Origin: a virus
Strand: one strand, 5' to 3'
IMG/VR virus record: IMGVR_UViG_3300010885_014582
Coordinates: 1 to 64,000 of that record
DNA: 64,000 nucleotides
Below are positions 2,879-54,287 of this stretch, one piece after another; position 1 is the first letter of the stretch; every line of letters starts with the position of its first letter. The translations under genes and the position numbers were made by a program. Under the pieces are notes generated by a model. It saw only the letters and a list, made by a program, of their open reading frames with translations, had not been told where the DNA came from and made no database searches.

Positions 2879-3283
2879 TCAGTAGAGAAGATCAAACATC
2901 ACAGTTGATATATCTCCTACTTCTTCATTCATGTACGGGATACTCGACATATTCAGATTTACATTCAGCAATTGATCTTTGTGTGCTGTGGCGCATAAAT
3001 CACATAAGCACCCTTGTCGGTACCTAATCCATGATCCATGGGACTTCAGCAGTGATTGTTTGTTGCTGGTGACTCCCTGACGATCCTTAGGAGTTAGACC
3101 GCCCCACATGCCCCACTTCTCGTCTATACCGTCCTTGAGGCACCTCTCCCACACTGGGCAGGTCTTACAGACCTCCCTAGCGACTGAGTAATACTGCTCA
3201 GGAGCGTCTGCATCGATTGGTGGGAACCAAAAGACATTGTTTCGTTTAAGGCAAAGAGCCTGCCTACGCCATTCTGAATACAT
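2879..3283 (-). CDS. whiB: WhiB-family protein with extra C-terminal Cys/His motif
   Basis: WRRQALC...AREVCKTCPVWERC...WGMWGGLT; C-terminal HGSWIRYRQGCLCDLC; start reassigned to ATG 3283. Confidence 0.88.
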   Translation of the reverse strand: MYSEWRRQALCLKRNNVFWFPPIDADAPEQYYSVAREVCKTCPVWERCLKDGIDEKWGMWGGLTPKDRQGVTSNKQSLLKSHGSWIRYRQGCLCDLCATAHKDQLLNVNLNMSSIPYMNEEVGDISTVMFDLLY

Positions 3284-3344
3284 ACATTCTCCAAATAGAA
3301 AGTGAGGTTGTGTTATGACACACGCCCCAGATAAGGTTGCCACT

Positions 3345-3734
3345 ATGGCAATCAACACCAAGACCGACCGCTCTGCGGAGGTCACCCAGTCCCTGTCCAC
3401 CCTTGTCGACGAGCGTCTTCGCTTGAAGGCGGAACTTGACGAACTTACCGATCGTCTTAAAGCGTTCGATGAAGTTGTCATCGCATGCTTCCAGTCGGGA
3501 GGCATTACCAAGGTCGAGACCGACAATGGAAAACTGAGCCTTGTTCAGTCCAACACTGTCCAATGGAACGATGAAGTCTTGAAAGGTCTCATCACTACAG
3601 CACAGTGGAACCGCATCACGGTTCGCAAGATTGACAAGGTTCGACTTGAAGCCGAACTGGTGGTTGGTCGAATTGACGCTGATGAGGTCGAAGTAGCGAA
3701 GTCGGTTAAACAATCTAAACCGTTCCTTCGCTGA
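3345..3734 (+). CDS. hypothetical coiled-coil protein (Gam/gp157-like architecture)
   Basis: N-terminal coiled coil followed by beta-like segment; TAAGGT-N7-ATG leaderless start. Confidence 0.5.
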   Translation: MAINTKTDRSAEVTQSLSTLVDERLRLKAELDELTDRLKAFDEVVIACFQSGGITKVETDNGKLSLVQSNTVQWNDEVLKGLITTAQWNRITVRKIDKVRLEAELVVGRIDADEVEVAKSVKQSKPFLR

Positions 3735-4833: not shown

Positions 4834-5063
4834 TTGTTGAGAGCCTCTACTATTTGTTGTGCTTCCCATTGGGTGACGCATTCACAGACAAAGTCGTAGT
4901 TCAAAGAACCAAGGCGGTGTGATCGAGCAACAATGTAGTTGTCAGAGGAGATCTGGACAATGGCGTAGTCAACCTCTACTGGTGCTGGTGGCACATATCC
5001 TTTTTTACTAATGTTCTTGCTGAGGGCACGATTGTATGCGCCTTCCATCTCTTGATGATCCAT
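4830..5063 (-). CDS. hypothetical protein
   Basis: ORF with AGGAG upstream; coupled to next gene. Confidence 0.55.
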   Translation of the reverse strand: MDHQEMEGAYNRALSKNISKKGYVPPAPVEVDYAIVQISSDNYIVARSHRLGSLNYDFVCECVTQWEAQQIVEALNK

Positions 5064-5113
5064 CTAGTGCTCCTTCGATTAACGGCTGATTCTAGCCGTA
5101 TAAAGGATACCTG

Positions 5114-6553
5114 TCAACTACCCTCTTCAGACAAATCAATTATGTCTGCGTACATGGCGTTAGCACCGTTCTGGTCGAGACCACCATTGGGCAACATGCG
5201 TGCCTGCTCACCAGCCTTCGAACCAAACAACCGAGACAACACGCCACTGGAACCACGGGCTTCAACCTCGAAGCGGACTAGGTCACGGTTGTCGTTGATG
5301 TTCTTGAAGCGCTCTACCAGACTGAACAAGCGATCGATCTCACCAGACAGTGACGAGTCAAGACCCTGTCCTTCAAGTTCTTCAGCAAACCTAGCGAACA
5401 TCACACGACCTACTTGCATCTCTACAAGAGCACGCATTGCGGACTGAAGTTGATCCTTTGTGCGGATCTCAATCGGCAGAGAAAACGCACAGTCAGAATT
5501 TTCTTCAAATTGCGGACAACGGCTTGCCAAGTAACAATGATTGCACTGCCGTAAAGGGTTAGCGTTATAGCGCAAAACAGGCACTTGTTCGGGGTCAATT
5601 TCAATAGATTCCCCTTGTGCATCAACGGTTTGCGTGCCCATAGAGGTTATGTTCTCGATACCCATAATTGGTAGCAATGTTTTTTCATTGGCGTGCCGCC
5701 TCTTGGGGGGGTCAGTAACAATGTTTGGTACCCTCGGTGCCACACTTGGGGCATTATCGTTACCCCCTGGAATCATTATGATTGAGTTGTCATTATCGAG
5801 TGTGAACTCTTCCTCGTCATCGACATTCATAAGGTCATAGCCCCCAAAATTCTTGGTCTCCCATGCTCTCCACGATTGGATAGCAAGGTGTGCAACGGCG
5901 TTAACTTCGTCGTTGATGACAGCATCGTAGTCGACACCAAGGCGCTGTATATCTGCCCTGTGTCTCTTACGAACGCTGTCCTTTTGTTGTGCTGGGTATC
6001 TGTGTAGGGCGTGACCATCCCATACCTGTGTCTCTCCGTAACGGACAGCACTAGACCATGAAACTACAACTACTGCTTCCCAACCAACACGCTCGATGAC
6101 ATCTGGCTTGGATGTAAGACCAATGAGGTTAGTTCCCCAGCGCATAGCAATCTGCCCAATACGAGCAATGTTGCGACCTGTGATGGCTCGGTCACTAATG
6201 GCTACTCGACCGTACTTCTGGCACAGCCATGTCAAGCGCTCTAGGTCATCAGCGTCATTCCAGATGGGGACATACTTGTCTCCCATCCATGTACCGTCGT
6301 AGTCTGGTCTACCAATCACATAAGTTAAACTATCAATGTGCTCACGCACAAAAGAGTCGTACCGAGATAGGTCTTCATCGTTCTCTGAGACATACAGGAT
6401 GATCTCATTACCTTGGTACACAGCCGACAGGTCAATGACCTTGCGCTTGGGTACTGCGTAGTGAGTCAGGTTTATAGCAAAGCGTGTAACTCCTGCGCTA
6501 AGTAGCAACGAGCGGTAAGAACCTTTCTCGGCTCCACCAAAATATACTTTCAA
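5114..6553 (-). CDS. hypothetical protein: possible degenerate TGT-like barrel plus Cys4 cluster
   Basis: MKVYFGG start, SWSSAVRYG segment, C-terminal CNHCYLASRCP...C. Confidence 0.5.
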   Translation of the reverse strand: MKVYFGGAEKGSYRSLLLSAGVTRFAINLTHYAVPKRKVIDLSAVYQGNEIILYVSENDEDLSRYDSFVREHIDSLTYVIGRPDYDGTWMGDKYVPIWNDADDLERLTWLCQKYGRVAISDRAITGRNIARIGQIAMRWGTNLIGLTSKPDVIERVGWEAVVVVSWSSAVRYGETQVWDGHALHRYPAQQKDSVRKRHRADIQRLGVDYDAVINDEVNAVAHLAIQSWRAWETKNFGGYDLMNVDDEEEFTLDNDNSIIMIPGGNDNAPSVAPRVPNIVTDPPKRRHANEKTLLPIMGIENITSMGTQTVDAQGESIEIDPEQVPVLRYNANPLRQCNHCYLASRCPQFEENSDCAFSLPIEIRTKDQLQSAMRALVEMQVGRVMFARFAEELEGQGLDSSLSGEIDRLFSLVERFKNINDNRDLVRFEVEARGSSGVLSRLFGSKAGEQARMLPNGGLDQNGANAMYADIIDLSEEGS

Positions 6554-7945: not shown

Positions 7946-8002
7946 TTTGTACTCCTAATAAGTTTGGATAGTCGTAAAGACTACACCAAAATTAAGAGGT
8001 GA

Positions 8003-8218
8003 TTACATCGATGAAGAATTGTCTGCAATGATAGATGCGTCGTTGTGAACACGGTGTGCTAACTCTCGTGCTCGTGCTGGTGCACCAATGCCACGAAAAG
8101 TTCCCATGTGGGAGTTCTCACGAAACACAGAAGACTTCATACCGCTTGCTTCATGGTCAATTTTAATGTTCTTGTCGGGGTGTCCGTAGGACTCCAACCA
8201 AGGGTACATGTTTGCCAT
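8003..8218 (-). CDS. small hypothetical protein (array member)
   Basis: TAATG-coupled ORF. Confidence 0.55.
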   Translation of the reverse strand: MANMYPWLESYGHPDKNIKIDHEASGMKSSVFRENSHMGTFRGIGAPARARELAHRVHNDASIIADNSSSM

Positions 8219-8424
8219 TACAGCCCAGAGTCTGCCAGTGGGTGGCGGTCAGTGAAACTGTAAACCTCACCAGTTGGGAACTGAGACTTAGTTACTTGCT
8301 GGCGCAAGGTTGCTGAAGTTGGGTCAACCTCTCCACCACGATCTGGTGTGAGGGACTTGAACTTACCGTCTGTAGCGCCGAGGCGCATATCTCGGTTCAT
8401 TGAGCGGGAATCATTAACTGCCAT
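8218..8424 (-). CDS. small hypothetical protein (array member)
   Basis: ORF; contains VTKSQF. Confidence 0.6.
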   Translation of the reverse strand: MAVNDSRSMNRDMRLGATDGKFKSLTPDRGGEVDPTSATLRQQVTKSQFPTGEVYSFTDRHPLADSGL

Positions 8425-8443
8425 AGTACTTCTATTTTATCAG

Positions 8444-8743
8444 TTAGTTGGTTTGACTGCTGTATGTGTCCCCATTGGGGTTGCCATTTTTTTCGTAACT
8501 GGCTTGAGATGTAACAAAGGCATGACGCCGTGCTTCATTCTGGGCGTTTGCTCCTGAAAAATGACCAACCATTTTTTGACCCTCAAAAACTTGAGATATA
8601 AAACCATTTTCGTGATGACGAATCATAATATCTTGTTGTGGGTGTCCCCAGCGCTGGTTCTGCCATGGGCTTCTTGGCGTTGGTGTTGGATCTCTATGGG
8701 TGTCTCCATTTCCCCAAAGACCGTTTTTCTTATTTTTTCTCAT
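8444..8743 (-). CDS. small hypothetical protein (array member)
   Basis: ORF abutting upstream stop. Confidence 0.55.
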   Translation of the reverse strand: MRKNKKNGLWGNGDTHRDPTPTPRSPWQNQRWGHPQQDIMIRHHENGFISQVFEGQKMVGHFSGANAQNEARRHAFVTSQASYEKNGNPNGDTYSSQTN

Positions 8744-9010
8744 TTAGTTCTCCCAAACTTCACGGTGTTTTCTTTGTGCAAATGATTCAGTTGGATCGCC
8801 ATAACTTGACTTCTCTGATGGCTTTGCATCCCACAGTGCTTTGCGCTGGCGCTGTTCTTCTGTCCAGATAGGTGCTGTACTTACTGTAGTAGAGGTGCCC
8901 CACAGAGTGCGACGAGCGTTGCGGTCATGTGCACGGCTCCTCGGAGGAGATGTGATGGGTGCTGTGCCTGTGCTACCAGCACGAAGAATTGGGTCTTTCA
9001 TGGTTACCAT
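8744..9010 (-). CDS. small hypothetical protein (array member)
   Basis: ORF tiles the array. Confidence 0.5.
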   Translation of the reverse strand: MVTMKDPILRAGSTGTAPITSPPRSRAHDRNARRTLWGTSTTVSTAPIWTEEQRQRKALWDAKPSEKSSYGDPTESFAQRKHREVWEN

Positions 9011-9375
9011 GAACCCCGTCGTTCGTCAGGGTCAACTTCTCCACGAGAACTGCGTCCCATAGTGCGACTAGTTGACGGTGAGGTAATAGATGGAGATGCA
9101 CCACTTGATGCACCACCTCTGTTTTGCCATTTATCTGTAAAGTATCCAGCAGCAAGGCGAGCATTACGGGTGCTCAGTGCTTCTCCTGGCTTCATCATAC
9201 GGCTGTCTTTTGTGTCAACATATGCGCCTGGATCACCATAATCACGAGATGTGCCAGCATTAATGCTGGGAAGGTCAAACCCTTTAGGTGTGAACGATGG
9301 TGGATCTTTCCACAGTGTGGGTTGAACACCCAGTGTTTGCGGAGTTCCGATTCCTTGTTGGTATCTCATACCCAT
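9004..9375 (-). CDS. small hypothetical protein (array member)
   Basis: ORF tiles the array. Confidence 0.55.
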   Translation of the reverse strand: MGMRYQQGIGTPQTLGVQPTLWKDPPSFTPKGFDLPSINAGTSRDYGDPGAYVDTKDSRMMKPGEALSTRNARLAAGYFTDKWQNRGGASSGASPSITSPSTSRTMGRSSRGEVDPDERRGSW

Positions 9376-9674
9376 AATCCTTGCATTGAATAGCGACTTG
9401 ATGATTCACTGTTTGCGTCCATAAATCCATCACGGAACATAACTGGCGCACCAGATTGCCATGAACGGAATGTTGGAAAGTTGCGATCGAGAGTAAGGCA
9501 ATCAGACACGCTCATTGCTTGCTTTTGAATACCACGGGTCTGTGGGAACAACCCTTGTGGCACTACAGGGCGAATCTTTCGTATCTCCTCAGGCGTGGAA
9601 ATAGCAGACATGAGTGCTTGATCAACAAGCATCTCTTGCCTACTTTGCCATGGCTTATTGGGATACTGAGGCAT
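9366..9674 (-). CDS. small hypothetical protein (array member)
   Basis: ORF tiles the array. Confidence 0.6.
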   Translation of the reverse strand: MPQYPNKPWQSRQEMLVDQALMSAISTPEEIRKIRPVVPQGLFPQTRGIQKQAMSVSDCLTLDRNFPTFRSWQSGAPVMFRDGFMDANSESSSRYSMQGLWV

Positions 9675-9677
9675 TAT

Positions 9678-9887
9678 TTAACAACCTGAACGGGCTTTGT
9701 GAAATGGTGGAACACCAAATGTACGCTTTGGTTCAGATGCTTCTTCGTCTAGTTCTGATACATGACTAGCAATTTCAGAAGCATCAACGCCTCCCCATGC
9801 TGCTTTTTGTACAGCAATGTGATTAGCCATAATTGCTTCACGGTCAACACGACCAGCACCATTAGGACGGTGTACTCCACGGGGCAT
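9678..9887 (-). CDS. small protein with N-terminal RPNGAGRVDR motif
   Basis: MPRGVHRPNGAGRVDRE. Confidence 0.75.
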   Translation of the reverse strand: MPRGVHRPNGAGRVDREAIMANHIAVQKAAWGGVDASEIASHVSELDEEASEPKRTFGVPPFHKARSGC

Positions 9888-9890
9888 TAT

Positions 9891-10109
9891 TTATCCCTCT
9901 TCATTATTTTGTGGGACAGAAGGTGTATTGAAATACTCTTCAAGACGACCTTGCGCTTCTTGATGGTCGGCTCGTTGTGCCATGCGATGGTTGTGCACAT
10001 CAATACGGGCTTTGGTTAACGAAGAACTGAACAGTGGGTAACGCATTGGTTTAAATGAGTCACGGTCTACACGACCTGCACCATTAGGGCGATTTTTTCC
10101 ACGAGGCAT
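9891..10109 (-). CDS. small protein with N-terminal RPNGAGRVDR motif
   Basis: MPRGKNRPNGAGRVDRD. Confidence 0.75.
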   Translation of the reverse strand: MPRGKNRPNGAGRVDRDSFKPMRYPLFSSSLTKARIDVHNHRMAQRADHQEAQGRLEEYFNTPSVPQNNEEG

Positions 10110-10111
10110 GA

Positions 10112-10318
10112 TTATTTCTTCTTCTTCTTTGGGCGGGGGATACCTTGGGCTGGTGCCTCATCGGTGTCCTGTGAGTGGGTTACAGAAGGGTCTGCCTTCT
10201 TTGGTTGCATAGACGGGTGGTTCTGTCGAGGATCAAAGTTGACTCGGTAAACATTGCCTTCACGACTAACTTGTCGTCTTGGGCTTTGAGAAGTATCTTT
10301 ACCATCATTATTAGGCAT
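10112..10318 (-). CDS. small basic hypothetical protein (array member)
   Basis: GKDTSQSPRRQVSR; Lys-rich C-terminus. Confidence 0.6.
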   Translation of the reverse strand: MPNNDGKDTSQSPRRQVSREGNVYRVNFDPRQNHPSMQPKKADPSVTHSQDTDEAPAQGIPRPKKKKK

Positions 10319-10321
10319 TAC

Positions 10322-10543
10322 TTAGTAAGCACCTTTGGGATTTAGTTTGGCAGACTCAGGAAAATGAGCGTCTAATCCGCCGTCCATGTCATCCATAAGT
10401 TCTGGATTTTCTTTTTCATGCTTTTCGTAAGCCGTCATAGGTCGTGAATCCTGTGGATTCATTGTTTTTTTACTATAATTACCACCAAATGAAGCACGGT
10501 CAACACGACCAGCACCATTAGGACGGTGTTCTCCACGAGCCAT
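10322..10543 (-). CDS. small protein with N-terminal RPNGAGRVDR motif
   Basis: MARGEHRPNGAGRVDRA. Confidence 0.75.
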   Translation of the reverse strand: MARGEHRPNGAGRVDRASFGGNYSKKTMNPQDSRPMTAYEKHEKENPELMDDMDGGLDAHFPESAKLNPKGAY

Positions 10544-10722
10544 TATTTGTCTCCTTCATTGCGACTGTCTGGTCGATTATTTCCAAGTGCTTCATCCAAG
10601 TCAGGTAAGAACTTTTCTGGGTGTTGTTCATACATGTTTGGGAACTTACGATTTGCCGATGCAAGAAGATAGGCATCCCAATTTTCCCAAATTGGTTTAA
10701 ACTGATTGTTATTAAGAGTCAT
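10543..10722 (-). CDS. small protein (59 aa, not in ORF track)
   Basis: hand translation MTLNNNQFKPIWENW...; TAATG overlaps on both sides. Confidence 0.65.
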   Translation of the reverse strand: MTLNNNQFKPIWENWDAYLLASANRKFPNMYEQHPEKFLPDLDEALGNNRPDSRNEGDK

Positions 10723-10997
10723 TAGTTTTCGCCTCTTACACGGCGGTCTTGAACATCTTCAGCGATTCTAAAATATTGACTGTTTTGGAGTGCAGCGCCT
10801 TGACCAGATTCTCCTCCTACATACCTTTTACGGTTAGCAGGACCATATGCTTCGTCGTAGTCTGATTCTTCAGGGTTGTAGTTAACCCCACGAAGACCTT
10901 CATTGCGCTGTGCAAGCATCTCTTGTTGTGCGATCATTGCATTACGGGTGTTGAGGTATGGGTCAGCGATGTGCTGTCCCCTGTGGTTGTGTGCCAT
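10722..10997 (-). CDS. small protein with MAHxHR-IADPYL motif
   Basis: MAHNHRGQHIADPYLNTRNA; internal GESGQG. Confidence 0.7.
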   Translation of the reverse strand: MAHNHRGQHIADPYLNTRNAMIAQQEMLAQRNEGLRGVNYNPEESDYDEAYGPANRKRYVGGESGQGAALQNSQYFRIAEDVQDRRVRGEN

Positions 10998-11344
10998 TAC
11001 TGACCTTCTCTTCCTTTACGCACTGAAAACCCATGACCAGATTCACCAAATGCAAGTTTTGTGCGGTCAATAGGTGCATTAGTATCTGGCATAAGATCAG
11101 CATCAGTTGTGGTGTGTTGGTCTAGATAATCGTCGTATTCTTCTTGCATATTGCTACGACCTTGAAGACCTGGTGATTCAGATGAATTCATACCATAGAG
11201 ATTGCGAATAGTTCCTACATCAGTGCCTTGACGAGCCAACTGTGATATGTCAGCAATACGGGAGTAGTCAAGCCCTTGAATTCCTGCATTACGCTGTGTG
11301 AGGTATGGGTCTGCAATTGGGTTCATGCGGTGATCGTGTGCCAT
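10997..11344 (-). CDS. small protein with MAHxHR-IADPYL motif
   Basis: MAHDHRMNPIADPYLTQRNA; internal GESGHG. Confidence 0.7.
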   Translation of the reverse strand: MAHDHRMNPIADPYLTQRNAGIQGLDYSRIADISQLARQGTDVGTIRNLYGMNSSESPGLQGRSNMQEEYDDYLDQHTTTDADLMPDTNAPIDRTKLAFGESGHGFSVRKGREGQ

Positions 11345-11709
11345 TAGTAGGCTCCTGTCTTACTTAATTTTTTTGCCATTGGGGGCGATTTTGGAGATGG
11401 TTTTGGTTTACGAGGAACAGTCGTTCCTCCAGCAGGACCACGGAAGTCTCCTTCTCCGTCGTCCCCATTTTTTTTCGGCTGTTTAGGCTCTTTCTTCATG
11501 TAAGGCTTAACTACTGAGTTAGTTGATTCCTCATTGCCCCATTTTTTTGAAGGTGTCTTCTTATACTCAGAAGGGTTATTGTCCCATTCTTGCCAAGGAT
11601 GGTTGATTAACTGCTTATCAGAGTTTGGAATTGAAACTTTAAAACCCTTGCCATGTCTATCAGGCGAGAAAGGTGCCCTATATTCATTTGGATCAAAGCG
11701 AGAAGCCAT
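11344..11709 (-). CDS. Lys/Pro-rich hypothetical protein (array member)
   Basis: ORF with TAAAAT-N6-ATG leaderless start. Confidence 0.6.
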   Translation of the reverse strand: MASRFDPNEYRAPFSPDRHGKGFKVSIPNSDKQLINHPWQEWDNNPSEYKKTPSKKWGNEESTNSVVKPYMKKEPKQPKKNGDDGEGDFRGPAGGTTVPRKPKPSPKSPPMAKKLSKTGAY

Positions 11710-11727
11710 ATGAATATTTTAGACTAT

Positions 11728-12225
11728 TTAGCGCCAGCGTGGAGCGAGTGATTTCAACTGAGAACGGCGCTCAGGGCTAATCTGTGTTGCCTGATTAGGC
11801 TCGTCACCTCGTGGAATACCACGGGGACCTACTTTTCCGTCGTTTGTCAGACGGACAGGTTCAGCACCAACAGGAGAGAACCGCAAACCTTGTGCTTCTC
11901 TCTGTAGTCCTGTGTACATATTGAACTCTTCAGGCCAAAAGTAGTCAGTTGTATTGATTCTTTCACCTTTGTGAACACCACGGCTGTACTGGCGTGCGTT
12001 CATACGGCTTAGGGTGCCTAGAACTTTGTCTTGACGGCGGTTGGCGTCCATGGTGCCGAGGTATCCGTCTGGATACTGTGAATCTACCGCTGTGCGAAAA
12101 CCTGAAAGTTGTGCGTCTTTTCCGTTACGGAAGACAGGACTTGGTCCCATTGTGACAGCAGTGCCAACTCCAGGCGCTTGGGCTGGGCTGTTCCATGATG
12201 TAAATGTTGGTGTCTGCTGACTCAT
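11728..12225 (-). CDS. hypothetical protein (array member)
   Basis: YPDGYLGT...RGVHKGERI; PTF/PVFR near N-terminus. Confidence 0.65.
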   Translation of the reverse strand: MSQQTPTFTSWNSPAQAPGVGTAVTMGPSPVFRNGKDAQLSGFRTAVDSQYPDGYLGTMDANRRQDKVLGTLSRMNARQYSRGVHKGERINTTDYFWPEEFNMYTGLQREAQGLRFSPVGAEPVRLTNDGKVGPRGIPRGDEPNQATQISPERRSQLKSLAPRWR

Positions 12226-12374
12226 CCCCACATACCTCCTGCTGACATAGATGGTCCAAGAACCCCACCGCCACCGCCTATGGTGGAAACAGGGCGTGCA
12301 GAACGAGCAATTGCTTTCTTACGCTCATACCTTTGGAGGGTGCGTGATCTAGATCGTGGGTTCTTATTTACCAT
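12222..12374 (-). CDS. small basic protein (50 aa, not in ORF track)
   Basis: hand translation MVNKNPRSRSRTLQRYERKK...; ATGA overlap with next gene. Confidence 0.5.
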   Translation of the reverse strand: MVNKNPRSRSRTLQRYERKKAIARSARPVSTIGGGGGVLGPSMSAGGMWG

Positions 12375-12642
12375 TTTGATTATATGAAGAAGTGATGTCT
12401 TCCGAAGAGTCGTCAGGATTGAACTTATTAAGTGTTCCGCCCTGATAGGTGCCAGAGGTACCGTTAAAGGTCCCCCAGTGCGCTCCTGAGGGGCTTACAA
12501 GGTGTTCTGCGCCTGTGTTGTCCCTATGGACTGTAGCGCCCTGTGAGATGGCGCTGGAGGCTGTTTTAGCCCACTCGTTTCGTGAGGAACCAGTGGACTG
12601 ACCTTGTTGACGAAACTGACGCTGTCCTCGAAAGGTAGGCAT
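12364..12642 (-). CDS. small protein with MPTFxGxxxFR motif
   Basis: MPTFRGQRQFR. Confidence 0.7.
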   Translation of the reverse strand: MPTFRGQRQFRQQGQSTGSSRNEWAKTASSAISQGATVHRDNTGAEHLVSPSGAHWGTFNGTSGTYQGGTLNKFNPDDSSEDITSSYNQNGK

Positions 12643-13034
12643 TAGTACTCTTCACCTTTGTATTCAATCTCAGATGGTGTCCCAAGGTGACCATGCTCCA
12701 TGAAACGGGCTACAGCGGTAGTTGGGTCCATGCCATGGTCTTGAATAAACGCTCCGACATGCTTATTGTACTTTTTTCCTCTAGTGCCAAAAGCACCTGC
12801 AACGATCTGCTCTGCATGCTTTGCAGTTGAGTAGTCATGACCAGCCAAACGACCACGGATGGCTGATTCTGGGCTTACTAGTTCCTGCCAAGCCTTTTGC
12901 TGGCGACGAGAGGCACGGCGGGAAAGACCTGTGCGCTCGTATGGATCAGGGGCATCGCCAAAAGAACCAACAGGGCGTCGGTCAATGCCATCTGCGCCTG
13001 TTTCTAAGGGTGTTACATAGGAGTCAGGATCCAT
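12642..13034 (-). CDS. hypothetical protein (array member)
   Basis: start reassigned to TAATG-coupled ATG 13034 (MDPDSY). Confidence 0.6.
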   Translation of the reverse strand: MDPDSYVTPLETGADGIDRRPVGSFGDAPDPYERTGLSRRASRRQQKAWQELVSPESAIRGRLAGHDYSTAKHAEQIVAGAFGTRGKKYNKHVGAFIQDHGMDPTTAVARFMEHGHLGTPSEIEYKGEEY

Positions 13035-13204
13035 TAGGAATCTCTTTCGTCGTATTTCTGGTGGCAATTAAGGCACATTGGGTCACCTGAGTAACTCTTT
13101 TCTGTGGCTTCTTCGTTGCACCCTGCACCTGTGCATTTTTCACTACTGCGAGAGGTACCTGTTCCCTGTCGACGGAATACTGGCTTTCCTTGAAAAGTTG
13201 GCAT
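13034..13204 (-). CDS. small protein with MPTFxGxxxFR motif and Cys4 finger (56 aa, not in ORF track)
   Basis: hand translation MPTFQGKPVFRRQGTGTSRSSEKCTGAGC...MCLNCH. Confidence 0.7.
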   Translation of the reverse strand: MPTFQGKPVFRRQGTGTSRSSEKCTGAGCNEEATEKSYSGDPMCLNCHQKYDERDS

Positions 13205-13392
13205 TACCAACCTTCTCTTTGAGATTTGCGTCGCATAATATCTTCAAATTCATTGTCCAAAGGACTCCCAATAGGGTGACCACTTTCCCCAATGCGTTCT
13301 TTCTTGGGAGTTCCATCATGTGGGTTGTCGCCACGACCTGCGTTAGCGCCATTAGCGCCACGAAATACTGCATTACCGTTAAATGTTGGCAT
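13204..13392 (-). CDS. small protein with MPTFxGxxxFR motif
   Basis: MPTFNGNAVFR; internal GESGH. Confidence 0.7.
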   Translation of the reverse strand: MPTFNGNAVFRGANGANAGRGDNPHDGTPKKERIGESGHPIGSPLDNEFEDIMRRKSQREGW

Positions 13393-13441
13393 AAAAATCC
13401 TTTATTTATATAATATCTCAGAAACAGTACTCGTGTGAGTA

Positions 13442-13792
13442 CTAAGTCCAGCGAGCCATATCGTTGTCAAGTTGTGCATCATATGCTTGGTTTGCTGGTT
13501 CAGGAGAAGGGAATTGTGCACTACTAATGCCATGTCCTCCGCTTTCACCAGATCGCATAACCTGACTTGTCGCATAACTTCTTGCCATAGATGCCATGGC
13601 ACTTCTGGCTCCCATTCCTGCGCCAGCAGTTGCGGCTCCAGCGCCAGCGGCTTCAGCGCCAGCGGCTCCAGCAGTTGCGGCTCCAGCAGTTGCGGCTCCA
13701 GCAGTTGCGGCTCCAGCAGTTGCGGCTCCAGCGCCAGCGGCTTCAGCGCCAGCGGCTAAACCCAATGCGGCTAGTATTGCTGGTAAAGGCAT
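13442..13792 (-). CDS. Ala/Gly-repeat low-complexity protein
   Basis: AGAAT/AGAEA repeats; AGGAG RBS; GESGGHG and ISSAQF motifs. Confidence 0.65.
   Translation of the reverse strand: MPLPAILAALGLAAGAEAAGAGAATAGAATAGAATAGAATAGAAGAEAAGAGAATAGAGMGARSAMASMARSYATSQVMRSGESGGHGISSAQFPSPEPANQAYDAQLDNDMARWT
13620..13757. repeat. 15-bp/21-bp coding tandem repeat (GCGGCTCCAGCAGTT units)
   Basis: directly visible tandem copies. Confidence 0.9.
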
Positions 13793-13800
13793 AAGTCTCC

Positions 13801-14091
13801 TTATTTAATCACTGGTTTAAATGATATCGCAGAAATGGTATCTCCATTTTCACCTTTGATGTCATCAAATCCAATGATGAAAGTAAGGTCAATCCCTCTT
13901 GGTGCTACGAAACCACGGGAAATAGCGGCGGCTTTAGCCGCTTGGTTAACTGCTGATGCTCCAATAGCACGCATTTTAGGCAATTGCCCTGCGTTAATGG
14001 CACGAGCCAAAATGGATCCGACGGATTGAGGGTTACTAGAACCCGACACCTTCAAGACATCGTCAATAGTTGTGTTCAATTCTTGTGACAC
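13801..14091 (-). CDS. spoVS: stage V sporulation protein S family protein
   Basis: VLKVS..SNP.SV...RAIGASAVNQAAKA.AISRGFVAPRGIDL...F.DI...ISAI.F. Confidence 0.9.
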   Translation of the reverse strand: MSQELNTTIDDVLKVSGSSNPQSVGSILARAINAGQLPKMRAIGASAVNQAAKAAAISRGFVAPRGIDLTFIIGFDDIKGENGDTISAISFKPVIK

Positions 14092-29003: not shown

Positions 29004-29227
29004 TGAACATTAAAGATAAGTTGATGGTATACATCACTTTAGGCATTTTAGGGTTTATTGGTCTAGTTGTTATTGGCGAATATGCTTCAATGCTTGCACA
29101 GCAGGCTTCTACTGGTGAAAAGTTTGCAACCAACTCAGATGCTATTGCTTTAGTACAAAATGCACTGGTTGGCCTTATTGGTATTATTGGTGGTTACTTT
29201 GCTGGCAGAAGTAAAGGTGATGATTAA
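29003..29227 (+). CDS. small two-TM membrane protein
   Basis: two hydrophobic segments. Confidence 0.65.
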   Translation: MNIKDKLMVYITLGILGFIGLVVIGEYASMLAQQASTGEKFATNSDAIALVQNALVGLIGIIGGYFAGRSKGDD

Positions 29228-47835: not shown

Positions 47836-48915
47836 TTAGGCAGTTGGTACTGCGCCACCGAGTGTGTTGATGATAACACGAGATTCGTGTGTGATGACAC
47901 CGAAGCCCCAGATTGCGTACCATGACAAGCCGTGCTCACGACCGAAGTCGATTACACCACCATCACGGAGTTCAACTGGAAGGGCAATTGCTTGTCCGAA
48001 TGCGTTGTCACCGATCATGATTGAAGAGAACGAGTTCGAAAGAACTGCGTCACGGGTACTTGTTGCTGGGTTGGAGTCAACCAAACCAAGACCAGACTTA
48101 ACCTGGGTGGTTTCAATGAAGACCACATCGTACAAACGACCAATTTCACCGAGCATGAAGTTACCTGGAGCGGCATACTTTGTTACTTCGATGAATTCTG
48201 GCCAGTCACGAAGCGCACGGCTCTGTGAAGGGTGTACGAAACATACATAGGTATCGCCAAGGCGAGGGATGTTCTGGTTAGCCAAGATCTCAACTGCGTC
48301 CTTGACGGTTGCAGGTGACATGTAGCCAGGTGCGCCTGAGTTACCAGCGGCTGCGTACTCGTAAGGAGCACGAGGACCACGGGTAGAAGGAGCGGTGCGT
48401 CCGAAGACTACTGACGGTGCAACGGCAGAGCCGCCACCGAAAGGAACACCTGATGCGTACAGCGTGTTACGAGCCTGGATGTCCATGGACTGAGCCATGT
48501 GACGACCAAGAAGGCGTGAAGACGAAGCCATAACATCATCGAAAGAAGCGTTGAGGAGGAGTTCGGTAACCGAAACTGCCTTACCTTGTTCTTTAACAGT
48601 GATCTGGATCTGACTTGCTGAAAGTGCTGAAGGCTCCATACGGGTACCTTCTGTCAATTCTGCACCTGTTGACTCGTCCGTTGCAAGGTTGTTGTAACGC
48701 ATGAAGTTAATGGTGAGACCTGGCATGACGCCCAGTTCCGTCTTCTTGACGGCAAACTGTTCAAAGCGAAGCACTGGCATCGCCTGGAAAAGAATTTCTT
48801 TCGACCAGATAGTCTGGATCGCTGGGCTGAGAGCGGTGCCGCCAACGGTATAGCCAGTTGCGCTTGTCGCACCTGCCGTTGTTACTGCGCCACCTACGGG
48901 ACCTGGAAGGGCCAT
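47836..48915 (-). CDS. major capsid protein (N4-gp56 family-like)
   Basis: F.QFA.K...G.TI.F.RY..L...LTEG...HP....L...GEIG....V.F.ET...DFGR...WY. Confidence 0.9.
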   Translation of the reverse strand: MALPGPVGGAVTTAGATSATGYTVGGTALSPAIQTIWSKEILFQAMPVLRFEQFAVKKTELGVMPGLTINFMRYNNLATDESTGAELTEGTRMEPSALSASQIQITVKEQGKAVSVTELLLNASFDDVMASSSRLLGRHMAQSMDIQARNTLYASGVPFGGGSAVAPSVVFGRTAPSTRGPRAPYEYAAAGNSGAPGYMSPATVKDAVEILANQNIPRLGDTYVCFVHPSQSRALRDWPEFIEVTKYAAPGNFMLGEIGRLYDVVFIETTQVKSGLGLVDSNPATSTRDAVLSNSFSSIMIGDNAFGQAIALPVELRDGGVIDFGREHGLSWYAIWGFGVITHESRVIINTLGGAVPTA

Positions 48916-48949: not shown

Positions 48950-49753
48950 TTAGAAACGGCCTCTAGGAGACCGTGCGTTCAGGAGCCTATCCCGCATTTT
49001 TGAGTACTGATCCATCGACATATTGCGGATATCATCCGCACTTAACTGTTGGTATTCCGTTTGAGTTTCCATTGGCCCAACAGGAGGCGCCGTTACGGGT
49101 GCCCCCCTCAAGCGACCTTGCTGTTGCTGAGTCGCTTGCTGGATTGATTCAATAATAGCAGATGAACGCTCACGCAGTACAGCAATTGATTGTTCGATCT
49201 CATCCTCGCTGTTTCCTGACACAAGATCGATCAATTCTGGGATGATTGATTCTTGTTCTGCTTGCAGACGAGTATTGCGATAATGGGTCAAAGCCTGCAT
49301 CTGGCGCTCTTTATCGAGCAATGCTTCTTGGGCTTGGCGTTGTGCTTCAATGGTTTCAAGGCGTGCTTGCCACTCTTGCTCAACGGTATTGATGCGCTGA
49401 TTGAATTCATCTTCCTGTTTAAGGAGAAGTTCTTTAGCGCTGAGTTCGTCGATTTCACGCTGACGCAGAATTTCCGATTCTTTTTTAGAAAGGGCTTCTG
49501 CTTGCTTGCGGGCTTCTTCTCGCTCCTTGGCAATAAGTGACATCTGCTCTTCCATGTTTTTCACACGGACATCTGCCTCTTCAAGACGCTTGTACATCTT
49601 GTCTTTTTCCTGCTTACGGATACCTTCTACCTCATCTTCAGAGAAGAGTTTGGCGTTTGTACTTTTCATTGCGTCTTCAACAAATTGCTCCACTTGTGGA
49701 GAATCCATTGGGACAGAAATAATGTCCCCTTCGGGGACGGTGTTCTTGGACAT
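48950..49753 (-). CDS. capsid scaffolding protein
   Basis: long coiled coil ending DIRNMSMDQY..MR.RL; between portal and capsid. Confidence 0.75.
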   Translation of the reverse strand: MSKNTVPEGDIISVPMDSPQVEQFVEDAMKSTNAKLFSEDEVEGIRKQEKDKMYKRLEEADVRVKNMEEQMSLIAKEREEARKQAEALSKKESEILRQREIDELSAKELLLKQEDEFNQRINTVEQEWQARLETIEAQRQAQEALLDKERQMQALTHYRNTRLQAEQESIIPELIDLVSGNSEDEIEQSIAVLRERSSAIIESIQQATQQQQGRLRGAPVTAPPVGPMETQTEYQQLSADDIRNMSMDQYSKMRDRLLNARSPRGRF

Positions 49754-49806: not shown

Positions 49807-51501
49807 TTATGATTCTTCGTCAGGCACACGACGCTGGGCGAACCGTGCTCCGTATGCCTTTGCTACAAGTTGATTTACCATCTGCTCTTCTTGTGGAGTG
49901 ACCACTGCACCAGGCATTGGTCCACCACTATCAGGAGAGCCTCCTGTGGAAGATACATTAGCACCTCCAGCAGAAGCCATTTCTGGACCATCAGATCCAG
50001 GAATCATTCCAGTAGCCAGCATTACTGCTTGGCTGATCTGGGCACGGAGCATATCAAGTGCTCCTTGATCGACTGCGTCGTCTTGCAGTTCCTCAAAAAT
50101 TTCGTCCATCTTCTCGTTCGGGAATTCTTCTCCAAGAAGGCGCAAAGCACCACGCTTGGATTCCAAACCAAGAGCCATCTTGGCTTGAACCTCATTGAGT
50201 TTGATGAGTTGGTCGACAGGGAGTGGCTCAGGCCAGTGAACCATTGTCTTGTAAGTAAGGGGGTCAGCAGGGTCTAGTGCCGTTGCTTGATCACGCTCAG
50301 GCATCGCTGCTTTACTTGGATCATATTGAAGCATCTGTGGTTCAAACACAGCAGCAGTACGAATGATAATTTCATTTATACGCTCAAGACCTTTAGTAAA
50401 GTGAACCTTTTTCATCATGAAACGGTTCATCATTGGCTGATACTGAATTGCCAAAGCAACACCAGAGGTGTTAGATACAGGTTGGAATTGACCAAGAGCG
50501 GTCTCAGGTACACCAGTCATCTCATGCATAGAACGCTTAATGAAAGTGATGTATTCAAGAGCGCCAGCCATGTTTCCACTGGACTCAAGGTTGAATACGC
50601 TGGCGTCCTTAGGAAGACCTGCCCAAACTTTCTTAGGTCCACGCTCCAATTGAGAAGCCTTAGCGCCAGTAATAATAGTTACAGGAGCGGCGTGGTAGTT
50701 GATGATGTCAGAAACTTCAACCATCTTCTCATTGAGTTCACGGTTAAGTGGGATGATATCCCAGATGTCTGACTGACCCCATGGAGAAGAAGAGATAGAG
50801 GTGTTGGGGATATGCACAACAGGGATAGTTCCCAAAGCGTTGTCGTATTGATCAATTAGTTCGTCATTGATGAATTGTTGAATCATGTCATCAGAAAGAA
50901 TTTCGGTAAAGGTGTAAACCTGACGAGTTCCTTCAGGAGATGTACCCCAGAAACGGTATTTAAGTTTAAAGCGAAGCAATCGGTCACGGTCATGTGGGTG
51001 ATACTCAGGGAAGCAATGTGCTGGGTTCAACGGGATAACACGGATACGACCTTCAACAGGGATACCAACGCTGTCTACATATGGTTCTTCATATGCAATC
51101 TTTACAAAACAGTCACCAGTAACGGATGCTAGTTGACCCATTTCCCAAAGGACATAATGCTTGTTGTTATGGTTTTCCCATACTTGCGCCAGCAAATGAG
51201 GGATGATGGCTGAGTTTTGTTCTGGGCAACGAAATTGAACACCTTTACCAAAGCAAAAGTTGGTGATGTAGTCAGACATCGTGCGGACATAGTTAAGGTA
51301 GAACTGGGACTCACCCATTTCACGACGGTATGACCAGTGGTGACCAAGGTACCAAGCCCATGCGGCTGAGTAACGGTTTAAGCGAGGTCCATGTACTTCA
51401 AACTCTTCGTCTGCTAATTCCACCAAACCAAGTGGGGAGATAGCAACAGTGAGGTCACTCGATGCTGCTCTATAAGATGGTGACCAGAAGTCCATTGCCA
51501 T
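49807..51501 (-). CDS. portal protein (SPP1 gp6-like)
   Basis: NY...GD, IPVVHIPN...WG.SD, GVP..ALG...SGVAL. Confidence 0.88.
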   Translation of the reverse strand: MAMDFWSPSYRAASSDLTVAISPLGLVELADEEFEVHGPRLNRYSAAWAWYLGHHWSYRREMGESQFYLNYVRTMSDYITNFCFGKGVQFRCPEQNSAIIPHLLAQVWENHNNKHYVLWEMGQLASVTGDCFVKIAYEEPYVDSVGIPVEGRIRVIPLNPAHCFPEYHPHDRDRLLRFKLKYRFWGTSPEGTRQVYTFTEILSDDMIQQFINDELIDQYDNALGTIPVVHIPNTSISSSPWGQSDIWDIIPLNRELNEKMVEVSDIINYHAAPVTIITGAKASQLERGPKKVWAGLPKDASVFNLESSGNMAGALEYITFIKRSMHEMTGVPETALGQFQPVSNTSGVALAIQYQPMMNRFMMKKVHFTKGLERINEIIIRTAAVFEPQMLQYDPSKAAMPERDQATALDPADPLTYKTMVHWPEPLPVDQLIKLNEVQAKMALGLESKRGALRLLGEEFPNEKMDEIFEELQDDAVDQGALDMLRAQISQAVMLATGMIPGSDGPEMASAGGANVSSTGGSPDSGGPMPGAVVTPQEEQMVNQLVAKAYGARFAQRRVPDEES

Positions 51502-52524: not shown

Positions 52525-53139
52525 CTATTTTTTAGAATCTCGTTCTTGCATAAAGGATTGGAAGGGTGCTCCCGTGTATGGATCAAACTTACTAGCCACG
52601 GTAATTGCCTTATTTGCAACGGTTTTAGCCTGCTGTGGTGTCAACTGTTTACCTACCGCAAGGGTGTGTAAAGCGCCCAAAGCGTAAGAGGAACCTGTAC
52701 CTACAGCGTAAATACCATTGCTATCGCTAGTCCAAGAGTAGTCACCCTCAAGAATATAGATAGTCCCATGGACAACTACAATGATGGTTGACCCTTGTTC
52801 AGCAATATGTTCTTTGTCATCTTTTGCTGAGGAATAACCCTGCTCGTCAAAACAAGACCTAAGAGAAGGTATGAACTGACGGGTAATGAACTGATCAAGT
52901 TTCTTACCAAGAGTATTGGCAGGTGGTATTGGTGGAACAAACACATGCTGAAGGATGTTGATTGCTCGAACATCTCCAGCAGCGCCCATGATGTACTTAC
53001 CATTAGCGGCAATCTTGGATGTTCCAGCCCCAAGGGTAGTTACCTGATATGCCGACCCTGAGTCGTCAAATGAGGCAATACGACTATCTGTGCAAAGTAC
53101 CGCATAGTTGTCACCTTGGATACCCACAATAGTTGTCAT
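52525..53139 (-). CDS. HslV/proteasome-beta-like Ntn threonine protease
   Basis: start at 53139 gives M-TTIVG; DSR, SKI, GAAG, AVGTGS..ALGAL, DPYTG. Confidence 0.85.
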   Translation of the reverse strand: MTTIVGIQGDNYAVLCTDSRIASFDDSGSAYQVTTLGAGTSKIAANGKYIMGAAGDVRAINILQHVFVPPIPPANTLGKKLDQFITRQFIPSLRSCFDEQGYSSAKDDKEHIAEQGSTIIVVVHGTIYILEGDYSWTSDSNGIYAVGTGSSYALGALHTLAVGKQLTPQQAKTVANKAITVASKFDPYTGAPFQSFMQERDSKK

Positions 53140-54287
53140 TAGGCGGTGTATTCCTTGTTGTGGTACATCGCCCAACCATCTCGGATGGGGATCATCTCAA
53201 GGTTGAATTCGGCATCACCATCTTTGTAGTTGACTACACAGAGACCCTGTTGCCAGTTCTCAGTGATTGTCATCGGGCGACCGTCAAGGTCGATACCACC
53301 TTTAGTAGATGGTACAGCGCCATCAACACGAGCAAGGCAACCAGCAGAAGCCGCAAGGATGGTCTTACGACCGTCATAGTCTTCACGGGTTACTTCTGCC
53401 CACTCACGGCGGTGGATGTGTCCATAGAGCACTGAGGTCTTTTCATTAGCCAAATACATGTGTGCTGTAGAGCCGTTGCTTTTAACACGAGTACCATGGA
53501 TAACTTTCAACTTCTGATTAATCCAATAGTAACCAGCAGGGTAGCCAGGAACATATTGAATATTGAAATCATTAAAACGACAGAGGAACGGAACCGAAAG
53601 TACGGGCCAGTTGTCTGGTGTGTCTCCACGCCTCAAACCAAAAGAAGCCTTTGCATTATCTAATGTGTAGTTAACAAGACGCTCTTCATGGTTTCCAGCA
53701 AGCCAAACAATTTCAGCGTCAGGAGCAGCAGCACGAATACGAGCCATAAGAATTGTTGCGTAGTCAATTGATTTTTGAGTTGTCAATGCATAGGCAGGAC
53801 TAAGTCGGTATTTACCAAACTCAGCAAAGTCCAAGTTGTCACCATGCATGACTACTTTTTCAGGCTTTAAATCCTTGATCATTGCAACGCAGATGTCGAT
53901 AGCCCGCTCATCATGGATACCTTCAAGTTCACCTAATGCATTACGAAAGTAGCCGATCTGCATGTCAGGTAGGACTACTGCTGTATTCCACTCTGTTTTC
54001 TTTGGTGTTTTAGTTACATTGTTTGTTGGCAATTTAACAGCAGGACCTTGGTTAACAGGATCCCATTCAGGACCTTCTGCCCACTTTGGTGAGAACTGAA
54101 TAGCCGCAAGGTCGTGAATTTGTGCTTCACCATCTTGGTCTTTAGTTAGTGATTGATAAAGAGATACACGCTTTACTGAACCAATTTCGTCAATGTCAAT
54201 CTTCTGACGATCAAGAATCTCAAGAAGTTTTCCAAGAGCCTTAGCGTTGTTTGCTGGTTTGTCTAGATCATTCGCCAAGTTGCTCAC
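53139..54287 (-). CDS. calcineurin-like metallophosphoesterase
   Basis: PDMQ, GDNLD, GNHE, HG, GHIHR. Confidence 0.85.
   Translation of the reverse strand: MSNLANDLDKPANNAKALGKLLEILDRQKIDIDEIGSVKRVSLYQSLTKDQDGEAQIHDLAAIQFSPKWAEGPEWDPVNQGPAVKLPTNNVTKTPKKTEWNTAVVLPDMQIGYFRNALGELEGIHDERAIDICVAMIKDLKPEKVVMHGDNLDFAEFGKYRLSPAYALTTQKSIDYATILMARIRAAAPDAEIVWLAGNHEERLVNYTLDNAKASFGLRRGDTPDNWPVLSVPFLCRFNDFNIQYVPGYPAGYYWINQKLKVIHGTRVKSNGSTAHMYLANEKTSVLYGHIHRREWAEVTREDYDGRKTILAASAGCLARVDGAVPSTKGGIDLDGRPMTITENWQQGLCVVNYKDGDAEFNLEMIPIRDGWAMYHNKEYTA

Follow-up and report, generated by a model that had tools for sequence, protein, structure and literature searches.

Three small genes in the genome of an uncultured freshwater phage begin with almost the same 16 residues and then continue into unrelated proteins, and the question that this locus raises is what the common peptide is kept for. 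The genes lie in IMG/VR virus record IMGVR_UViG_3300010885_014582, a genome of 94,013 bp rated complete by CheckV; its first 64 kb (64,000 nucleotides, minus-strand genes read in reverse) are the window analysed here, to which coordinates refer unless another contig is named. They stand in tandem on the minus strand (9678-9887, 9891-10109 and 10322-10543) and open with M[AP]RGxxRPNGAGRVDR. We call this peptide the leader and the remainder of each protein the cargo. A gene between the second and third carries a leader of a related type, designated HPNR, so that three of the four leaders in this phage are of the GAGR type, which proved to be the rarer one. An initial annotation had proposed that the leader is conserved as protein and not just as a DNA repeat. 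The four genes are as follows.

9678-9887, minus strand: leader gene 1, 69 amino acids (aa); leader MPRGVHRPNGAGRVDR at 9840-9887
9891-10109, minus strand: leader gene 2, 72 aa; leader MPRGKNRPNGAGRVDR at 10062-10109
10112-10318, minus strand: gene with a degenerate HPNR-class leader, MPNNDGKDTSQSPRRQVSR, at about 10262-10318
10322-10543, minus strand: leader gene 3, 73 aa; leader MARGEHRPNGAGRVDR at 10496-10543

A degenerate DNA pattern for RPNGAGRVDR matched the window exactly three times (9841-9869, 10063-10091 and 10497-10525), always on the minus strand, and produced no match in 100 shuffles. The annotation had described the copies at 9840-9873 and 10497-10530 as identical in DNA, and this 34-nt stretch is indeed the longest identical run between the first and third copies. 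DNA likeness of the leader copies extends from ~20 nt 5' of the ATG, in the ribosome-binding region, to about codon 17-19, with 34 identical and about 75 similar bases over leader and ribosome-binding site together. Within motif codons 7-16, the second copy (10062-10095) differs from the others only by CGT/CGC at Arg7, GCT/GCA at Ala11 and GTT/GTA at Val14, again as annotated. All three differences are synonymous, in a stretch with 8.7 synonymous and 21.3 non-synonymous sites. Because the probability of three synonymous changes out of three under neutrality is about 0.024, the window copies alone are only suggestive of selection on the peptide, and it is the relatives that make the case. The reported end of similarity directly after VDR was likewise confirmed: codons 17-32 contain 22-26 non-synonymous differences per pair, and the three proteins are unrelated past codon 16-17. 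Full-length paralogy, the alternative that the annotation had set against its own proposal, is excluded.

Relatives were obtained via the conserved gene downstream of the leader genes and by scanning IMG/VR and JGI metagenomes for the pattern. The leader common among them reads M-[AP]-R-G-x-[DN]-T-x-x-H-P-[NG]-R-x-V-x-R, and the form seen in the window, M-[AP]-R-G-x-x-R-P-N-G-A-G-R-V-D-R, is a rare variant of this larger HPNR-type family. A gap of one residue brings the two forms into alignment, and relative L054 has an intermediate, MPRGRVRQPHEGRVDR. Gene 10112-10318, which the annotation had called a looser analogue, finds its place here: its leader has decayed from the commoner HPNR type, and that of the L005 orthologue reads MAKGKDTSRSPQRQVSR. 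The orthologue of gene 9891-10109 in L004/L010 has its leader class unchanged.

The relatives supplied 37 distinct leader DNAs, in which Arg3, Gly4, His10, Arg13, Val15 and Arg17 are invariant, although each of these six residues is encoded by two to five synonymous codons, including AGA versus CGN for Arg. Over the eight core codons, the proportion of synonymous sites that differ (pS) was 0.61 and that of non-synonymous sites (pN) 0.04, giving a pN/pS of 0.066 with synonymous change near saturation. The ratio was 0.33 for codons 2-17 as a whole and 0.96, the value of unrelated sequence, for the next 16 codons (18-33). These values bear out the annotated claim of purifying selection on a peptide of about 16 aa, and we are highly confident that the leader is a modular unit kept by selection at the peptide level. 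That it acts as a signal, as the annotation went on to say, is an inference.

A search of 1.84 billion representative proteins with a profile made from 39 leaders (E<=1e-3) returned at least 164 clusters at 50% identity. The 150 listed clusters are all proteins of 50-163 aa; 147 of these match from residue 1, and the other three, annotated with Val as their start, match from residue 2 or 4. Information content, calculated from 148 representative proteins, is 3.2 bits at Arg17, drops below 1 bit at residues 18-20, where a weak E/D-x-aromatic preference is seen, and is about 0.3 from residue 21. The leader is 16-17 residues long, net basic and Arg-rich, and its boundary is sharp, at Arg17.

None of 185,579 prokaryote genomes (one per species) contains the leader DNA pattern, which argues that the leader is a phage invention and not a copied host signal; all contigs that contain the pattern are viral or metagenomic. 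The family is undescribed, as we found no Pfam, PHROG or NCBIfam entry, no solved structure and no paper for it. Neither the leader proteins nor 20 array genes gave a match over the cut-off in these three databases, and the only match at a lenient threshold, DUF5497 (E 0.1; 13.4 bits, where the cut-off is 27), was rejected. Searched against PDB chains (E<=10), the 39-leader profile produced only a chance match to SecY, look-alikes in the ESM Atlas all scored 0.80 or less, which is chance level, and a literature search with motif strings retrieved no relevant paper. A suspected likeness to the mycobacterial ribosomal protein bL37 and to the N-terminus of bL35/bL28 was dropped, being unsupported by the PDB profile search and by NCBIfam. 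The leader logo contains neither a hydrophobic stretch nor an RR pair, and so lacks the defining features of Sec and Tat signals.

Clustering on the cargo alone divided 39 proteins from the fetched loci into 24 clusters and the pooled set of 187 leader proteins into 106, of which 73 are singletons. Together with the 164 clusters of the profile search and the clean leader swaps described below, these counts uphold the annotated view of one leader on different cargo. Cargos are 33-146 aa long, with a median content of 20% ILVFMWC and 65% disorder-favouring residues, and 89 are net negative against 47 that are net positive; judged by composition, they are mostly disordered, acidic and low in hydrophobic residues. 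Four or more Cys are found in 12 of 148 cargos, as zinc-ribbon-like CxxC pairs. Forty-nine cargo pairs are alike in one local module only, such as GTYLGNVGxTHMFSAESTGGGETDS or (D/E)xAPAGGI[PK]RP...CxxC...CxxC, which makes the cargos mosaics of pieces of 10-40 residues. The window genes are built in the same way. The cargo of gene 9678-9887 ends in a ...PPFHKARSGC module that recurs in protein P0010 with another leader and another middle part, that of gene 10112-10318 has the recurrent ...APAQGIPRP module, and gene 10322-10543 encodes a C-terminal module, MTAYEKHEKENPELM...NPKGAY, which in relatives stands behind HPNR-class leaders. The element (D/E)xAPAxGI[PK]RP recurs in many unrelated cargos, including that of gene 10112-10318, and may be a shared binding motif; a similar string, GPRGIPR, lies in an invariant stretch of a conserved 165-aa protein encoded upstream (11728-12231).

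Comparison of these proteins shows that leaders are exchanged between cargos. The MTAYEKHEKENPELM...NPKGAY module follows RPNGAGRVDR in the window, RPSGAGRVDR in P0002, and HPNRKVGR or HPNRGVSR in P0003-P0005 and L005. P0002 (RPSGAGRVDR) and P0005 (HPNRKVGR) have the same 28-residue linker and C-terminal module and differ in the leader alone, a clean swap. P0137, with a window-type leader, and P0011, with the common leader, have one cargo in common, and a 125-aa cargo (68% identity) is headed by MPTHNGNPVFR... in L014 (5705-6133) and by MARGEHTEHHPNRKVSR in L008.

New combinations of leader and cargo may arise through recombination in the shared leader and ribosome-binding-site DNA, as the annotation had supposed when it called this DNA a possible handle for cassette gain or loss. 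Recombination in or beside this DNA would fit the swaps, the likeness of leader DNA within contigs and the replacement of cassettes at leader or gene borders. Leader DNA on unrelated cargos is 0.79 identical within contigs versus 0.70 between them. In an L005-like relative from RNA-library run X8, the leader and linker of gene 10322-10543 are replaced by 105 other bases, and the adjoining cassette changes at 9676, precisely where it meets the conserved gene. We consider the handle plausible; identical leader and ribosome-binding DNA on unrelated cargos, the 0.79 versus 0.70 identity and the cassette replacements speak for it, and this support is circumstantial. Contigs from DNA runs that end at the 34-nt repeats reflect a k-mer effect and have no bearing on recombination. 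Run X8 is a 2017 freshwater metatranscriptome whose L005-like contigs (1-4.5 kb, 85-95% identity) cover most of the array at 8000-14000, and it gives a weak hint of transcription in situ, carry-over of DNA being possible.

The leader genes belong to a packed run of small genes, about 6 kb long, that extends from a PDDEXK nuclease and a SpoVS-like gene (about 14.1 kb) down to about 8.0 kb and in which no gene has a Pfam or PHROG match. Every relative examined has a block of one to five leader genes directly upstream of the same 102-aa gene. The block lies downstream of the conserved 165-aa gene, with a varying number of other small genes between, and the set of leader genes differs in each relative, which makes the interval between the 165-aa and 102-aa genes a hypervariable slot. 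The slot and its surroundings contain the following genes.

9366-9674, minus strand: conserved 102-aa gene, lower edge of the slot, in every relative examined
10543-11709, minus strand: other slot genes, namely a 59-aa gene, two of the MAHxHRxxxIADPYLxxRNA class and a 121-aa gene
10722-10997 and 10997-11344, minus strand: the two MAHxHRxxxIADPYLxxRNA genes, adjacent and with different bodies; compare L057 at 5453-5692
11728-12231, minus strand: core gene of 165 aa with high conservation, marking the upper edge of the slot; homologues in Streptomyces phages
12222-12374, minus strand: conserved 50-aa open reading frame, basic in its N-terminal half (RSRSRTLQRYERKKAI) and Gly-rich in its C-terminal half, overlapping the start of the 165-aa gene
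12364-12642, 13034-13210 and 13204-13392, minus strand: MPTFxGxxVFR class, pattern MP[TS][FHY]xGxxV[FT]R, often followed by GAGAGRGD[DN]xH
13442-13792, minus strand: 116-aa protein whose N-terminus is hydrophobic; about nine tandem repeats of 15 nt encode Ala/Gly/Thr pentapeptides (AATAG/AEAAG)
13801-14091, minus strand: SpoVS-like gene at the head of the small-gene array, conserved in all relatives; compare L057 at 5036-5317

The annotation had pointed to NGANAGRGD in gene 13204-13392 as a further relative of the leader. The string is present; it belongs, however, to the separate MPTFxGxxVFR...GAGRGD class, and its DNA match is only 13 of 15 nt, or five residues. The MPTF and HPNR classes have a common [GN]-[KR]-x-V-x-R flavour. 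The 50-aa frame is present in L008, L011, L012 and L014. The number of repeats in gene 13442-13792 varies among relatives (the L009 protein has 86 aa), and assembly contigs break there. AlphaFold2 gave an unusable model of the 165-aa core protein (mean pLDDT, the predicted local confidence score, 46.8). The Streptomyces phage GiJojo is syntenic over this region, with a SpoVS-like gene, small genes, a 172-aa core gene, a counterpart of the 68-aa GATDGKFK...DRGGEVD gene and an HNH gene; no MARG-type leader gene is found among the GiJojo open reading frames of the syntenic region. One small gene of GiJojo in this region bears DPYLSRNA. A DPYL(S/T/N)RNA core does lie near the start of GiJojo gp166, so that this head is older than the MARG leader.

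The phage itself is contractile-tailed. Its terminase, SPP1-type portal, major head protein, sheath and baseplate genes are all on the minus strand, as are those for DnaB, an SNF2 helicase and a family A DNA polymerase and all genes near the leader block. Two genes serve as markers of an actinobacterial host.

2172-2810: Rpf-like transglycosylase domain
2879-3526: WhiB

Because of these two genes, and because the only cultured phages with a gene in common with the array are Streptomyces phages, the host probably belongs to the Actinobacteria. DNA of the phage was found again in lake and freshwater metagenomes. Megablast of 8 kb against 50,697 phage genomes returned no match, and tblastn of one leader protein against the same genomes gave chance matches only, a 17-residue match being hard for tblastn to find.

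What, then, might the leader do? In the account that we favour, it would be a position-dependent docking or address tag that brings many cargos to one common partner, the cargo being the working part of each protein; we place the probability of such a tag a little short of even. Its position at the start of the protein, its sharp end at Arg17 and the interchangeability of three leader classes favour a tag over a free-standing binding motif, and the occurrence of the same cargo behind different leaders fits a tag better than an active module. The assembling prohead is proposed as the leading candidate for the destination by analogy with phage T4, whose capsid targeting sequence (CTS) is the one phage precedent established by experiment. 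As PMC9026906 relates, citing Mullaney & Black 1996, the ten N-terminal residues of the CTS suffice to load foreign proteins into the head. The CTS is removed by the prohead protease, which processes it at residues 8 and 10, and the internal proteins that carry a CTS differ from one T4 relative to another (PMC9026906). The cargos of the present phage might likewise enter the head, pass into the host together with the DNA and act there against its defences, as effectors whose set changes quickly. The capsid as destination is nonetheless doubtful, and the complete account, comprising leader family, address tag, prohead destination and recombination through leader DNA, is our best explanation and a tentative one, somewhat less probable than its tag component. 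In its broadest form, the account would have one 17-residue adaptor and at least two interchangeable sister tags connect more than 100 short disordered effector modules to the same hub, which could be the interior of the capsid or a machine encoded by phage or host, such as the proteasome-like peptidase; that generalization, which has no described counterpart outside the T4 internal proteins, we think unlikely to hold in full. Three features of the genome are relevant to these proposals.

29081-29191, plus strand: sub-threshold Peptidase_S49 match in an 82-aa open frame (13.1 bits, E 0.004)
48950-49753, minus strand: putative scaffold of 267 aa, charged and coiled-coil-like, between the genes for the portal (49807-51501) and the capsid protein (47836-48915)
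52525-53175, minus strand: HslV/proteasome-type N-terminal nucleophile (Ntn) peptidase (PHROG 1040, Pfam Proteasome), between terminase and portal

Several results weigh against the prohead destination or the tag. No member of the S78, ClpP or S49 prohead protease families matched over the cut-off anywhere in the genome, the only S49 match being that of 13.1 bits, which is probably chance; S77 gave no match either, although the control for it was silent too. No leader-like site was seen in the head proteins or in any other protein of the genome, and the array is located after the replication genes, outside the head module. The cargos are mostly acidic (89 negative, 47 positive), in contrast to the basic T4 internal proteins IPII and IPIII. 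Recombination at gene starts could, as a side effect, have placed the leader so strictly at the N-terminus, and no cultured relative with leader genes was found by tblastn, a weak test. A complex prediction for capsid protein, scaffold and leader scored 0.00 and gave no answer, which counts neither for nor against docking. The putative scaffold has no PHROG match, and its C-terminus, ...MRDRLLNARSPRGRF, is nearly unchanged in four close relatives and partly kept in a 39%-identical one.

The leader could instead be the active part itself, a cytoplasmic ligand of a single conserved protein or nucleic acid of the host, such as a component of defence, transcription or translation, with nothing packaged and with the variable, acidic, disordered tails tuning or masking it or adding binding modules. 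Its invariant Arg, Gly, His and Pro pattern resembles a specific binding peptide, acidic disordered cargos with recurrent modules such as (D/E)xAPAxGIPRP are typical of proteins that hijack their hosts through motifs, and the array stands among non-structural genes. A free binding motif, however, need not begin near residue 1, as the leader does in 150 of the 150 listed clusters, and one cargo behind three leader classes would be odd if the leader were the effector; moreover, the motif occurs in no host protein and is therefore not mimicry of host sequence. We consider an active leader improbable, if by no means far-fetched. A reading of the repeat as nucleic acid only, be it a translation-initiation or regulatory RNA element or a recombination scar, draws on the 34 identical bases and similar ribosome-binding region of two copies and on the higher identity of leader DNA within contigs (0.79) than between them (0.70). 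The codon data largely refute it. Synonymous sites are near saturation (pS 0.61) while the core pN/pS is 0.066, Arg is kept across switches between AGA and CGN, and these values together with the sharp end of the leader rule out a purely nucleic-acid explanation. A scan of 7-16 kb revealed no enrichment of promoter- or terminator-like sites, and the only Rfam-type structure at the leader is a trivial 4-bp hairpin arising from the GRVDR codons. This reading is scarcely credible.

Two further possibilities would make the leader a substrate or a recruiting device for an enzyme. As a propeptide or N-terminal degron, it would release or time the cargos through a protease, possibly the HslV-like peptidase, which could act alone because disordered proteins need no unfoldase. 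This Ntn-type enzyme, the only peptidase seen in the genome, is encoded near the head genes, has a likely start of MTTIV, as in HslV, and is present in four of five relatives; the sharp boundary at invariant Arg17, followed by the weak E/D-x-aromatic preference, would also suit a processing site. There is, however, no evidence of cleavage, and we know of no proteasome-type enzyme that reads such a site. The leader-bearing relative with no match to the peptidase is only 79% complete, so that co-occurrence is uninformative either way. The enzyme could be an unusual protease of head maturation or effector processing, no link to the leader being seen, and a propeptide or degron seems to us quite improbable. 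The leader proteins would alternatively be precursors akin to those of ribosomally synthesized and post-translationally modified peptides (RiPPs), with the leader recruiting a tailoring enzyme, encoded at another place in the genome, to modify the variable part. A constant leader with a hypervariable remainder follows RiPP logic, and 12 of 148 cargos have at least four Cys; yet cargos of 33-146 aa far exceed the length of RiPP cores, and neither an enzyme gene in or beside the array (no Pfam or PHROG match) nor a known leader-recognition domain was seen. Precursors of this kind appear very improbable. The address tag remains the reading that we prefer.

If the leader does act as an address tag, it would be the second known case in which a short peptide brings arbitrary proteins into a phage particle or to another common hub, and the first in phages of Actinobacteria. 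Such a tag could be put to use as a handle for protein delivery, as has been done with the T4 CTS, and the cargos, more than 100 in number, would provide a catalogue of modules from uncultured freshwater phages that are candidates for anti-defence or host takeover. Regardless of function, small disordered phage proteins are built here by shuffling modules of 10-40 residues behind a constant head, and such shuffling escapes domain databases as well as gene callers; across the 6-kb array, none of Pfam, PHROG and NCBIfam gave a match.

The arrangement has partial counterparts in several known systems. Polymorphic toxins, such as MuF-domain phage toxins and CdiA or Rhs proteins with swapped tips, join a constant N-terminal trafficking part to exchangeable C-termini. 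The leader proteins resemble them in having a constant N-terminus, exchangeable C-terminal parts and apparent recombination at a sharp junction; they differ in that the constant part is a 17-residue peptide and not a domain, that neither toxin domains nor immunity genes are present (no Pfam, NCBIfam or PHROG domain in the cargos), and that the neighbours are further leader genes. Some RiPP families, for example the prochlorosins, use one leader with many cores, and have a conserved leader, a hypervariable remainder and many paralogues in common with the present family, whose cargo is much longer and for which no adjacent modifying enzyme or recognition domain was found. Encapsulin cargo-loading peptides are terminal and dock diverse cargo inside an HK97-fold shell; they are usually C-terminal and hydrophobic (GSL-type). 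Like them, the leader is a short terminal peptide on diverse cargo, its docking to the capsid protein being putative; unlike them, it is N-terminal and has no hydrophobic stretch.

The closest comparison is with phage T4. By the description in PMC9026906, the CTS has ten residues; it ends in a Glu cleavage site, whereas the leader has 16-17 residues and is basic and Arg-rich, so that length and chemistry are different. T4 also differs in its host group and lineage, the present phage having an SPP1-type portal, actinobacterial markers and leader proteins whose packaging is hypothetical; no gp21-type or other recognised prohead protease was found here, and the cargos are mostly acidic and disordered. 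The likeness lies in the architecture. As with the CTS on IPI, IPII and IPIII, a short N-terminal peptide is common to unrelated small proteins encoded by several genes per genome, the gene set turns over fast between close relatives, and it is the peptide and not the body that is conserved. The leader family is thus, by analogy only, a counterpart of the T4 CTS in architecture and not a member of that system.

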